From Enterococcus phage phiFL1A: 38,764 nt of DNA. Location of the stretch: the sequence record GQ478081.1; one strand, written 5' to 3'. The translations under genes and the position numbers were made by a program. Below the pieces are notes generated by a model. The model did no database searches. It worked only from the letters and a program-made list of their open reading frames with translations, and had not been told where the DNA came from. This document shows positions 1,833-4,698 of the stretch, one piece after another; position 1 is the stretch's first letter, and every line of letters starts with the position of its first letter.

Positions 1833-2165
1833 TTATTTCCCAAATCTACCCTTTAAATATGCACGTATAACTTCTCTGTCATGATCATCAAGTGGTTCAC
1901 CGTCAAAACTCATCACATTGTCTAAAACTTCATCCAAATCATCAGTTTTTTTTTCGACAAAAGGTTCTGGATTATCAACTATTCCTAAAATATAATCAGT
2001 GGAAATATTTAAATATTTAGCAACTTTAGTCAAATTTTCACCGCCAGGAGTTTTTTTCTTCCATCCATATAATACATTTTGACTAATTCCAACTCGATTT
2101 TCTAACTCATTAATGGAAATACCTCTACGGTCTGTAATTTTTTTTATTCTATCAAATGCTGTCAT
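1833..2165 (-). CDS. XRE-family HTH transcriptional repressor (CI-like)
   Basis: 110 aa. N-terminal helix-turn-helix (GISINELENRVGISQNVLYGW). Divergent from the early genes. RBS AAGGAG 7 nt before the ATG. Confidence 0.8.
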   Translation of the reverse strand: MTAFDRIKKITDRRGISINELENRVGISQNVLYGWKKKTPGGENLTKVAKYLNISTDYILGIVDNPEPFVEKKTDDLDEVLDNVMSFDGEPLDDHDREVIRAYLKGRFGK

Positions 2166-2921: not shown

Positions 2922-2935
2922 AATATTTCACCACC

Positions 2936-2982
2936 TTATCAGTTATTTCAGCAGACCACTTGCTGATAATTAAATTATACCA
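2936..2982 (-). promoter_or_regulatory. extended -10 promoter (TGGTATAAT) plus conserved leader hairpin, copy 1
   Basis: On the minus strand TGGTATAAT (complement of 2974-2982) is followed by TTATCAG-[CAGCA AGTGGTC TGCTG]-AAATAACTGATAA, then RBS AAGGTGGTGA and the ATG of the 92-aa gene. The same leader recurs upstream of the KTSC gene with compensatory stem changes. Confidence 0.45.
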
Positions 2983-2998
2983 GAAAGGATGTGATTAA

Positions 2999-3175
2999 AT
3001 GTCACAAGACTTAGAACTTGAAGTAAGAGCTGCATTAGTAAAAGCAAAAAAAACTCAAACATGGTTAGCAGAAGAATTAGACCTTTCAAAGCCGTATCTT
3101 ACAGATATTTTGAAAGGGCGTAGAAGTCCGGAAAAACAAATCAAAAAAATCAAAAAAATCTTAAATATCAAGTGA
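2999..3175 (+). CDS. Cro-like small HTH protein (58 aa)
   Basis: ATG at 2999 with AAAGGA RBS. Sequence KTQTWLAEELDLSKPYLTDILKGRRSP is HTH_XRE-like. Divergent from the repressor side. Not in the ORF track (under 60 aa). Confidence 0.55.
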   Translation: MSQDLELEVRAALVKAKKTQTWLAEELDLSKPYLTDILKGRRSPEKQIKKIKKILNIK

Positions 3176-3185
3176 GGTGAATAAA

Positions 3186-3347
3186 ATGGCAGATCAAGTG
3201 AATATTGATTTATTAGGTCAAGCATATTGTAACGTTCTGACACGCAAAACAGGAATTAAACATACGTACACTATCAAAGGAAAGGATGGCGAAAAACAAA
3301 ATGAACAATTTAGTAATAATGAAAAATCACCAAGCAGTAACAAGTAG
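3186..3347 (+). CDS. possible small ORF (53 aa) overlapping the rha start
   Basis: Very good RBS GAGGTG 7 nt before the ATG at 3186. Overlaps the 5' end of the Rha ORF in another frame, so coding status is uncertain. Confidence 0.2.
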   Translation: MADQVNIDLLGQAYCNVLTRKTGIKHTYTIKGKDGEKQNEQFSNNEKSPSSNK

Positions 3348-4011
3348 TTTACAAGTTGCTGAAGTTTTTGGCAAAGAACACAAAGTTGTTCTAAAAGCCA
3401 TTGATGAAATAAAACAGGGGGTGGCACAAAATTATGCCGACCTATTTTACGAAGATACCTACATTCATCCACAAAACAAACAATCTTATCGCCAAGTAAT
3501 TATGAACCGTGACGGATTTACATTATTAGCAATGGGATTCACAGGTCAAAAAGCTTTGCAATTTAAATTGAAATATATTGAAGCTTTCAATCAAATGGAA
3601 AAAGAAATTCAACAGCCTAAACTTCCAACCTCGCAAAGAGAATTGGCGATGCTTGCTTTATCAGCAAATGAAGAAACAAATGAGCGTGTAGATGTAATCG
3701 AAAAAGAAGTAGCCAACTTAAAAGACAATCAAAAAATCGGTGCAGATGATTATAGCTACTTATCACGTCGAGTTCATCAACGAGTAGCAGAAGTTGCAAG
3801 AGGATTTGGGAAAATCACAAAGGAACAGCGTGGAAAGTTATACAAAGATATTAATTCAGGTATTAAGCAAATCACAGGCGTGGGTACCCGATCACAATTA
3901 AGAGAAAAACATTATCCAATGGTAATTGAATATATCAATGACTGGGAGCCATCCACAGCCACAAAAACAGTTGTAAGACAAATGAGTTTAGACTTAAACG
4001 ACGTAATATAA
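3286..4011 (+). CDS. Rha-family phage regulatory protein / antirepressor
   Basis: N-terminal Phage_pRha-type motif (NLVIMKNHQAVTSSLQVAEVFGKEHKVVLKAI). C-terminal ORF6C-like coiled region. Start may be the ATG at 3301 (MNNLV...). Confidence 0.8.
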   Translation: MAKNKMNNLVIMKNHQAVTSSLQVAEVFGKEHKVVLKAIDEIKQGVAQNYADLFYEDTYIHPQNKQSYRQVIMNRDGFTLLAMGFTGQKALQFKLKYIEAFNQMEKEIQQPKLPTSQRELAMLALSANEETNERVDVIEKEVANLKDNQKIGADDYSYLSRRVHQRVAEVARGFGKITKEQRGKLYKDINSGIKQITGVGTRSQLREKHYPMVIEYINDWEPSTATKTVVRQMSLDLNDVI

Positions 4012-4021
4012 GGAGAATATT

Positions 4022-4207
4022 ATGGCTTATACGATTGATCAAGAAGCTTGGATACTTAATCAAATAAAAAAAGAACGTAAACAGCTTCAAGATGATAGAG
4101 CAGCACTCAGACAATCTGAACAATTAACGGAAAATAAAGCAGTTCAAATCGAAATAGAGCTTGAATTTTTAAGAGGTTTAGAAATTCAAAATAGAATTCA
4201 TGCATAG
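4022..4207 (+). CDS. hypothetical coiled-coil protein (61 aa)
   Basis: ORF with AAGGAG RBS. Heptad-like charged sequence. Confidence 0.5.
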   Translation: MAYTIDQEAWILNQIKKERKQLQDDRAALRQSEQLTENKAVQIEIELEFLRGLEIQNRIHA

Positions 4208-4217
4208 GAGGTTAATC

Positions 4218-4391
4218 ATGAAAGAAAATGAATTCAACGAAGAAAGAAAACAAAAAATATATGAATTAGCATTGGAAATTGTAGAGCTATTAAAAGAACA
4301 TGGTAATCCTAATATGAAAATTGAAATTAGCATAGATAGAATCGAACAAACAAGTGTTGACTGGTCAGAGCCAACACCTGCATGGGACTGA
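4218..4391 (+). CDS. hypothetical protein (57 aa)
   Basis: ATG at 4218 after RBS AGGAGG (GCATAGGAGGTTAATCATG). The track start at 4200 is probably too far upstream. Confidence 0.5.
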   Translation: MKENEFNEERKQKIYELALEIVELLKEHGNPNMKIEISIDRIEQTSVDWSEPTPAWD

Positions 4392-4598
4392 TTAGTATCC
4401 ACGTCTGAAAGGGTACCTTTTAATATTTTGATGATAGTAGCTACCTTTTGAAGAAGACGACAATAGTCCCTCGTAAATATAATGAGGCACACCTGTATGC
4501 GTATAAACACCGTTGTGGAATTGGACCGTCAACTCTTGATTGGATGAATTATATCCAACAGCAACCATATTACTAGAAGAAACAGGAATCATTTCCAC
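4392..4598 (-). CDS. KTSC-domain protein
   Basis: 68 aa with the KTSC pattern (VGYNSSNQELTVQFHNGVYTHTGVPHYIYEGLLSSSSKGSYYHQNIKRYPF). GTG start after RBS AAGGTGGTGA. Opposite strand to the surrounding early genes, with its own leader. Confidence 0.7.
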   Translation of the reverse strand: MEMIPVSSSNMVAVGYNSSNQELTVQFHNGVYTHTGVPHYIYEGLLSSSSKGSYYHQNIKRYPFRRGY

Positions 4599-4612
4599 TC
4601 ATATTCACCACC

Positions 4613-4646
4613 TTATTAGTTATTTCAGTGGACCACTCACTGATAA
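4613..4646 (-). promoter_or_regulatory. conserved leader hairpin, copy 2 (upstream of KTSC gene)
   Basis: Minus strand reads TTATCAG-[CAGTG AGTGGTC CACTG]-AAATAACTAATAAGGTGGTGAA. Same loop AGTGGTC as copy 1. Stem CAGCA/TGCTG is replaced by CAGTG/CACTG (two compensatory pairs). Candidate promoter -35 TTAACC / -10 TATAAT further upstream (complement of about 4660-4700). Confidence 0.4.
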
Positions 4647-4698
4647 GAGAATTTTAGCAAAAAAAAATTATATAAATCAATAGCATAGGAGGTTAACC

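Follow-up and report, generated by a model that had tools for sequence, protein, structure and literature searches.

Two unrelated minus-strand genes of Enterococcus phage phiFL1A (sequence record GQ478081.1; hereafter the window, 38,764 nucleotides (nt) in full) are preceded by two copies of one short hairpin-bearing leader, which would make up the transcribed portion of a portable expression cassette of Enterococcus and Vagococcus temperate phages. This cassette is a previously undescribed, family-wide promoter-leader module with a covarying 5′ hairpin. It is not particular to the two genes found here, which encode a 92-amino-acid (aa) protein and a KTSC-domain protein, and stands before about 50 gene families. 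Its promoter, fixed spacing and Shine-Dalgarno (SD) sequence are conserved, its cargo is exchangeable, and the lytic genes around it point the other way.

Both copies have the same layout, namely an extended −10, 4 nt, UUAU, a 5-base-pair (bp) stem enclosing the loop AGUGGUC, an AAAUAA linker, a long SD and the start codon (Table 1). They lie on the minus strand where the initial annotation had placed them, as found by both a pattern scan and a covariance model (R1, see below). A pattern with both variable stem pairs left free matches exactly two sites in the window, which are the two copies, while its expected number of matches is 0.00 (100 dinucleotide-preserving shuffles). R1 scores the copies at 73.6 and 68.8 bits, and the next-best site, at 14.4 bits, matches the SD part only. 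A 9-mer search around the loop gave no excess in the window. The two stems differ as had been described, with CAGCA/UGCUG in copy 1 and CAGUG/CACUG in copy 2, i.e., two pairs altered on both sides around an identical loop; one linker position also changes. The hairpin proposed in the initial annotation is real, but its size has to be revised from 5 to 6 bp, since the flanking U and A also pair. The window is 99% identical to the Enterococcus faecalis temperate phage phiFL3A (genus Phifelvirus) over the region examined.

To define the family, three degenerate scans of a viral collection, each freeing a different part of the element, were combined with one scan of species-representative genomes, yielding 185 loci. 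Alignment A1 holds 81 distinct 44-nt copies, and R1, which was built from it, finds 168 copies at E-values up to 0.01 in these loci. The covariance-model search of other genomes that the initial annotation had called for thus returned 168 relatives. Every true match from the promoter-free patterns has a long SD 8–17 nt after the hairpin, and the few pattern matches without both −10 and SD are chance matches. The 22 genome loci include 18 from 14 Enterococcus species, two from Vagococcus, and one each from a “Streptomyces sp. P17” and a “Flavobacterium” contig, with cI-like, integrase, antirepressor or replication genes next to most matches. The Streptomyces sp. P17 contig, which holds the cassette together with enterococcal-type phage genes, looks like contamination, and so, probably, is the 606-bp Flavobacterium petrolei contig, which has, besides the cassette, one antirepressor-family open reading frame (ORF) of a kind known from enterococcal phages. 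“Listeria phage LM 4-11-1” (UNVERIFIED_ORG) also carries the cassette, and its host label may be wrong. The exact element sequence was absent from the literature searched, and no Rfam family or paper describing the element was found; Rfam returned nothing relevant for a 2.9-kb query and, for a 96-nt query, only a weak match to the tip of the RNA Ref1C.

The hairpin has been selected as an RNA structure, on the strand of the cargo gene. Across A1, 98.8% of the 405 cells of the 5-bp stem are standard pairs, compared to 86.6% when the 3′ letters are shuffled, although the A1 sequences are related and these cells are not independent events. The patterns used to collect the copies fixed some flanking columns and never demanded stem complementarity. 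Double-sided changes affect four of the five stem pairs (55 cells in 81 copies), and the covariation score is 0.455 vs. 0.202 in shuffles, with none of 500 shuffles reaching the observed value. Sliding the partner by 1–3 columns lowers stem pairing to 4–51%. The loop-closing pair occurs as AU (45), CG (18), GC (14) and UA (2), and the pair next to it as CG, UA or UG, while rarer stems (CAACG/CGUUG, CGGCA/UGUCG and CGGCU/AGUCG) alter the second and third pairs. RNAalifold independently gives the same 6-bp helix, including an invariant U-A pair at its base. The initial view of a selected hairpin in a common 5′ leader, as opposed to a chance likeness of ribosome-binding sites (RBSs), is therefore borne out by the near-complete pairing, the compensatory changes and the shuffles. 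Within single genomes there was no signal of stem diversification, with identical stems in 2 of 14 within-locus pairs against 1.4 expected.

The type of mispairing further points to RNA rather than to a DNA palindrome: G-U or U-G occupies 27 stem cells, in at least five different stem types, and A-C a single one, a bias of 27 to 1 that favors RNA read from the cargo-gene strand. An antisense RNA stem would be paired less well, at about 92%. The element could instead act as DNA, as a palindromic operator or cruciform just 3′ of the promoter bound by a phage or host regulator, with its covariation produced by template-switch correction of a quasi-palindrome. Template switching can give short inverted repeats paired changes, the palindrome occupies positions +3 to +21 of the promoter, a classical repressor position, and the outer 7-nt repeat TTATCAG...CTGATAA is conserved in sequence without covariation. 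We nevertheless judge this explanation improbable. Operators keep their arms and vary their spacer, whereas here the arms vary around a fixed center; both stem types are present in one phage; the 27-to-1 bias extends across at least five independent stem types, while a DNA mechanism has no strand preference; and phages that differ in repressor and integrase carry the cassette. The phage’s own operator-like repeats are also unrelated to the element, and an identity of the leader as a CI operator was rejected on this ground. These repeats, AGCTAATTTATTAGCTAAT (2271–2289 and 2438–2456), lie 167 bp apart in the cI/early-gene intergenic region within the palindromic motif AGCTAATTT(A/T)TTAGCT (2268–2294 and 2435–2461), and are probably the repressor operators of the phage. 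An outer RNA helix formed by UUAUCAG/CUGAUAA was likewise rejected: it is paired in 91% of cells, the same as in shuffles, and most of its 5′ arm lies upstream of the predicted transcription start.

A second way to explain the structure places it in the opposite, lytic transcript, where its reverse complement, some 35 nt ahead of the RBS of the next lytic gene, could direct processing, insulate, or act as an anti-SD decoy, the complement of the cassette SD mimicking the 16S tail. In most copies a divergent lytic SD (AGAAAGG) and start do lie 15–35 nt upstream of the cassette −10, and CCUU pairs with the gp06 SD in the antisense fold. This reading is still harder to sustain than the DNA one, as each G-U of the sense strand would become an A-C mismatch in the antisense hairpin (27 cells), folding of the antisense RNA is no better than that of shuffles (z −1.4), and the cassette also stands beside wholly different neighbors, e.g., portal and terminase genes in Enterococcus phage AE4_2.

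The spacing between promoter and hairpin is invariant. Every true copy, including those from promoter-free patterns, has an extended −10 (TGnTATAAT) exactly 4 nt before UUAU, and the −10 hexamer is always exactly 8 nt from the stem, whereas the distances from hairpin to SD (8–17 nt) and from SD to start codon vary. This contrast is expected if the hairpin must be 5′-terminal. In the window, the extended −10 of copy 2 is weaker than that of copy 1, and the spacer between −10 and UUAU reads ttaa in copy 1 and tctc in copy 2. Transcription start sites (TSSs) mapped by differential RNA sequencing in E. faecalis and E. faecium lie 7–9 nt past the −10, at a purine, and in an identical context, TATAATTTAATTA, the published TSS is the last A (PMC7724050 supplement). 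The A of UUAU is the sole purine 5–9 nt downstream of the −10. By the published rule transcription would thus start at this third base of UUAU, with 1 unpaired nt ahead of the hairpin, and the fixed spacing would place the beginning of the hairpin 1–2 nt from the predicted 5′ end in all copies. The suggestion that transcription begins at the element fits this extended −10 at a fixed 4-nt spacing, with the TSS itself a prediction. A second promoter-like site (TTAACC, 18 nt, TATAAT; 4667–4696, minus strand) lies just upstream of the −10 of copy 2; a transcript begun there could be longer and bear a 5′ extension that is not protected.

Based on these features, we propose that the cassette is a portable leader whose 5′ hairpin shields the mRNA from decay and which serves any cargo equally, a proposal in which our confidence is about even. 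Its parts would be a −35-independent extended −10, a hairpin of 6 bp and a 7-nt loop located 1–2 nt past the 5′ end, an A-rich linker, and a 10-nt SD. The mRNA would start with pppA and enter the hairpin directly (−5.6 to −6.1 kcal/mol), leaving too little single-stranded 5′ end for pyrophosphohydrolase and for decay by RNase J/Y, and a ribosome on the strong SD would add protection, so that the outcome would be a stable, well-translated monocistronic mRNA. With its first 20 nt locked in a self-contained hairpin, the leader would also be kept from pairing with the downstream coding sequence, and could therefore work before any cargo. The mechanism is probably an ordinary one, combining mRNA protection and translation insulation. 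Both 5′ stem-loops and strong SDs are known 5′ stabilizers in Firmicutes, as in the aprE leader, STAB-SD, the SP82 polypurine element and hbs. In function the cassette is most like these 5′-terminal stabilizer leaders together with the moron concept discussed below: the Bacillus subtilis aprE leader, ermC, B. thuringiensis cryIIIA STAB-SD, SP82 and hbs, with Escherichia coli ompA as a Gram-negative counterpart, similarly have a hairpin a few nt from the 5′ end and a very strong SD closely after it, and a block of RppH and RNase J1 access is predicted for the cassette as for them, SP82 being itself a phage precedent. These are, however, single-gene leaders of unrelated sequence, whereas the cassette is one leader with a near-fixed loop before about 50 families, for which stabilization is a prediction.

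Two further lines of evidence are compatible with the protective leader. In B. subtilis, RppH acts only on 5′ ends with 2 or more unpaired nt, works better with at least 3, and favors a G at position 2 (reviewed in PMC3997798); with the predicted start, the leader would offer 1 unpaired nt and a U at position 2. Across 98 leaders folded together with their coding starts, the modeled cost of opening the RBS is 5.19 kcal/mol for the natural sequences vs. 5.81 kcal/mol with the hairpin region shuffled (Wilcoxon p-value 3 × 10−6), which is consistent with an insulating role. Several observations weigh against this reading. At −5.6 to −6.1 kcal/mol the hairpin has only modest stability, the gain by insulation is a small one of 0.6 kcal/mol, what is known of RppH and RNase J requirements comes from B. 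subtilis and not from Enterococcus, and the published TSS tables of E. faecalis V583 and E. faecium AUS0004 contain no element promoter. A purely protective hairpin would also not need a near-fixed loop, and the 17-nt hairpin tip recurs in a host small RNA (sRNA), Ref1C, and in a phage terminator, hinting at sequence-specific recognition. This sharing of the loop with a host sRNA is the main reason why we do not treat the stabilizer model as settled.

About 92% of copies retain the loop AGUGGUC, and the variants of it differ by single transitions. Some of them make A1·C7 or G2·U6 Watson-Crick pairs (AAUGGUC, AGUGGCC, GGUGGCC, AGUGGUU and AGUGACC), which suggests that the helix may extend through A·C and G·U to a UGG triloop, and the remaining ones change the middle three bases. 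In about 8% of cassettes another hairpin occupies the same place, i.e., CAGUGUGACAGGCUG, UAGCA-UGUUUG-UGCUA (ahead of a KTSC gene) or CAGCA-CUGCAA-UGCUG. Some hairpin is thus always there, yet the existence of alternatives indicates that the canonical loop is not strictly required.

On the strand of the element, the best Rfam match of the 96-nt query is the 3′ hairpin of the Enterococcus sRNA Ref1C (RF02845; 14.6 bits, E-value 5), whose consensus GuCagCcAGUGGUCgGcuGaC agrees with the leader hairpin in loop and stem base. Because the match covers model positions 68–131 only and falls far short of the 90-bit gathering score, the element is not a Ref1C member, and only the hairpin tip is in common. 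Ref1C was detected by Northern blot and is present in 25 of the 25 E. faecalis genomes of its discovery study (PMC3074167). It shares with the cassette the tip CAGC(N)-AGUGGUC-(N)GCUG and the host genus; however, its tip crowns a terminator, a 9–13-bp stem with a U-run after it, which closes the 3′ end of this chromosomal core sRNA, and the remainder is unlike the cassette. A metagenome scan for the tip recovered seven low-GC contigs with one identical Ref1C-like sRNA (50.4 bits, also below the gathering score of 90; Table 1), in which a 9-bp stem bears the exact tip and runs into a U-run, forming a terminator of −14.5 kcal/mol with a different lower stem. On one of these contigs (L199), the sRNA lies between a 276-aa gene of unknown function and CsbD- and Asp23-like genes, identified from their translations by eye, i.e., in a chromosomal neighborhood. 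A phage locus (L074:10780–11100) includes an ORF-free stretch of about 1 kb in which four hairpins resembling terminators, all with a U-run behind them, stand in tandem, and one of these carries a CAGCC-AGUGGUC-GGCUG tip. Common descent, a favorable fold or a shared binding factor are all possible reasons for the tip common to the leader and Ref1C.

The last of these would make the hairpin an operator: a trans-acting host or phage factor, either an RNA-binding protein or a ribonuclease, would read AGUGGUC and the CAG/CUG stem base and switch all prophage cassette genes up or down together, with Ref1C as a fellow target or competitor. Such regulators have phage precedents in Mu Com, T4 RegA and the MS2 coat protein, which bind hairpins and control translation. 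The loop and lower stem are near-invariant while the two apical pairs co-vary freely, the Ref1C 3′ hairpin with the same loop and stem base is the best Rfam match, the divergent Ref1C-like sRNA keeps the exact tip despite its different lower stem, and the same 17-mer tips the terminator in the phage locus. On the other side, no candidate factor was found. The only families that the loci have in common are cI, integrase, antirepressor and ImmA, and when the 2332 ORFs of 141 loci were clustered in search of a dedicated co-occurring protein, nothing but ordinary lysogeny and early genes emerged. The Ref1C match alone is statistically weak, the loop variants suit a structural reading equally well (A·C, G·U and triloop), and about 8% of cassettes have a different hairpin. 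We therefore regard an RNA operator as the less likely explanation, though the most serious competitor of the protective leader. Slightly less likely still is its extended form, in which an RNA-binding factor of Enterococcus or of the phage would recognize the hairpin as a tag shared by Ref1C and the leaders of about 50 accessory-gene families. All cassette genes of a prophage would then belong to a single post-transcriptional regulon, which induction might switch or Ref1C might titrate.

The least probable alternative, which we consider very unlikely, is control of the ribosome site by a small riboswitch or thermosensor. The element superficially resembles preQ1-I riboswitches in size and layout (5-bp stem, loop, A-rich tail and SD), but Rfam gave no riboswitch match at E-values up to 10 with the 2.9-kb or the 96-nt query, the SD takes part in no conserved pairing, its spacing from the hairpin varies by 9 nt, the loop has no conserved pseudoknot partner, and the cargo genes have no metabolic theme in common. 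A preQ1-like pseudoknot and ribozymes were rejected for lack of a model match and of a conserved loop partner. An anti-SD helix, with the spacer cuCC and UUAUCAG complementary to CUGAUAAGGAG, was also discarded: the positions linked in ctcc and GGAG would not pair, and the association of ctcc spacers with GGAG SDs reflects lineage and not covariation. Pairing of the loop GUGGUC with the 16S 3′ tail GAUCAC via one G-U is speculation, as loop variants do not track it, and a mini-ORF (GUG GUC NNC UGA) in the hairpin is without an SD and considered incidental.

The genomic organization of the cassettes corresponds to that of phage morons. As conceived by Hendrix and Juhala, morons are single small genes with their own promoter and terminator, placed between conserved genes, often against them, and with variable cargo. 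Both window copies and all relatives have their own promoter directly 5′ of the gene, as judged by consensus match only. Strong 3′ hairpins follow both window genes (Table 1) and many of the relatives, while others abut a convergent gene. With promoter, gene and terminator in each, both window inserts are complete morons. Classical morons bring their own unrelated signals, however, whereas the cassette signals are one standardized, conserved module. Exchange is seen in one slot beside a cro-like gene, where an identical upstream flank leads into three different cargos. In the family of the 92-aa protein (gp05 in phiFL3A), identity averages 85% for the leader, 69% for coding DNA and 52% for protein. 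An integron-type gene cassette was rejected: the 3′ flanks of 99 cargo genes contain no common motif, unlike integron cassettes with a structured attC recombination site at each 3′ end, and the conserved hairpin lies 5′ of the gene, inside the transcript.

Both window genes are oriented like cI, ImmA and integrase, opposite to the early operon, in agreement with the initial annotation, and we infer that they are expressed in the lysogen. The same orientation is found in locus L146, where four cassette genes alternate with opposite early genes and share the direction of cI and ImmA, and in phage AE4_2. The AE4_2 cassette (L188:2518–2786) has an AGUGCUU loop and a 72-aa gene. It separates the genes for portal and large terminase and is oriented against the late operon, so that the module also occurs outside the early region.

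Table 1 Features of the two cassettes in the window and of the Ref1C-like sRNA. Coordinates are those of the window unless a locus is given.
Feature	Position	Strand	Details
Copy 1 extended −10 promoter	2974–2982	−	TGGTATAAT; without a recognizable −35
Copy 1 predicted transcription start	2967	−	A, 7th nt past the −10
Copy 1 leader element	2926–2969	−	44 nt: UUAU, hairpin, AAAUAAC UGAUAAGGUGGUGAAA; reads UUAU-CAGCA-AGUGGUC-UGCUG-AAAUAACUGAUAAGGUGGUGAAAUAUU from 2969; R1 E-value 2 × 10−17
Copy 1 UUAU and hairpin region	2969–2942	−	TTATCAGCAAGTGGTCTGCTGAAATAAC
Copy 1 RNA hairpin	2948–2966	−	U-CAGCA / AGUGGUC / UGCUG-A; 6 bp, 7-nt loop; RNAfold −6.1 kcal/mol
Copy 1 Shine-Dalgarno	2928–2937	−	AAGGUGGUGA; 6 nt before ATG 2921; conserved in A1
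Cargo 1, 92-aa protein	2643–2921	−	ATG 2921; phiFL3A gp05; PHROG 1090, weak Cas2-like signal
Cargo 1 intrinsic terminator	2602–2633	−	GAACCCGUU...GACGGGUUC then UUUUU; −13.7 kcal/mol, z −4.0
Copy 2 extended −10-like promoter	4651–4659	−	TGCTAAAAT; TTGATT 18 nt upstream; 9/12 match, TG present
Copy 2 predicted transcription start	4644	−	A; predicted as for copy 1
Copy 2 leader element	4603–4646	−	44 nt; from 4646 as copy 1 except stem and one linker change; R1 E-value 4.5 × 10−16
Copy 2 UUAU and hairpin region	4646–4619	−	TTATCAGTGAGTGGTCCACTGAAATAAC
Copy 2 RNA hairpin	4625–4643	−	U-CAGUG / AGUGGUC / CACUG-A; RNAfold −5.9 kcal/mol
Copy 2 Shine-Dalgarno	4605–4614	−	AAGGUGGUGA; 6 nt before GTG 4598
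Cargo 2, 68-aa KTSC-domain protein	4392–4598	−	phiFL3A gp11; Pfam KTSC E-value 2.1 × 10−18
Cargo 2 probable terminator	4343–4381	−	13-bp 3′ hairpin then UUUGUU; −20.3 kcal/mol, z −3.5
Ref1C-like divergent sRNA	L196:556–665		Also in L191, L197, L199, L202, L205 and L206

The proteins encoded by cargo 1 and cargo 2 are unrelated, and the GTG start of the KTSC gene is backed by a homologue (L039) with an ATG at the equivalent codon. Overall, 52 cargo clusters, a few of them truncated artefacts, stand behind the leader, most with products of 55–215 aa. They include DUF2513, DUF1883, DUF2321, zinc ribbons, a TIR-like effector, the gp05 family and many PHROGs of unknown function. The 186-aa cargo of locus L054 (leader at 1949–1992, minus strand) matches a PADLOC TIR effector model (E-value 10−10), and at least some cargos thus appear defence-like. 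Cas2-like signals in gp05 are weak but repeated (Pfam CRISPR_Cas2, E-value 0.004; PADLOC Cas2b, E-value 5 × 10−4), and at least nine diverged gp05 homologues stand behind the same leader in other phages; gp05 would be a stand-alone Cas2-fold protein with no CRISPR context. In the region 2602–2646, the convergent genes gp04 (plus strand) and gp05 (minus strand) overlap by 4 nt, and the gp05 terminator, inside the coding end of gp04, may terminate transcription of the early operon in both directions. We also observed a recurring inverted repeat within the convergent gene of lytic direction that lies 3′ of many cassettes (e.g., L010, L066, L098, L115 and L163), TTGCTCC...GCTTGGAGCAA, which probably reflects a conserved small early protein.

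Among known systems, the closest analogue in genome behavior is provided by the start-associated sequences (SAS) of Cluster K mycobacteriophages, short SD-containing sequences before many unrelated non-structural genes, with a presumed translational function and, at about half of the sites, an adjacent inverted repeat (ESAS; PMC3203893). As in the cassette, a short SD-containing repeat lies ahead of many unrelated phage genes. The sequence (13-bp GGGATAGGAGCCC at gene starts, with or without 17-bp repeats) and the host phylum are different, however, which makes SAS/ESAS an analogue only. SAS genes run along their operon without their own promoter, whereas each cassette copy has one, and the 17-bp ESAS repeats have a variable spacer and no reported RNA covariation, whereas the cassette hairpin covaries clearly. 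Lambda-type nut boxB is likewise a promoter-proximal 5-bp hairpin with a conserved loop and a variable stem. It has, however, a GNRA-like pentaloop and a boxA partner and acts on long operons via N antitermination, while the cassette has the 7-nt loop AGUGGUC, no boxA, and a single short gene followed by its own terminator.

If this interpretation is correct, the cassette represents a new, well-supported cis-acting RNA motif in a clinically important genus, with strong covariation and more than 170 copies. Prophage accessory genes, some of them defence-like (TIR-type effector), would then use one standardized and exchangeable promoter-leader module instead of ad hoc signals, and scanning for the leader would be an easy way to find such genes. 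The module would also point to recombination within its shared 85 nt as the way in which cargo is swapped, and the leader would offer a compact natural expression part for Enterococcus genetics. Finally, should the loop prove to be a binding site that Ref1C has as well, host and phage would be linked at the post-transcriptional level.

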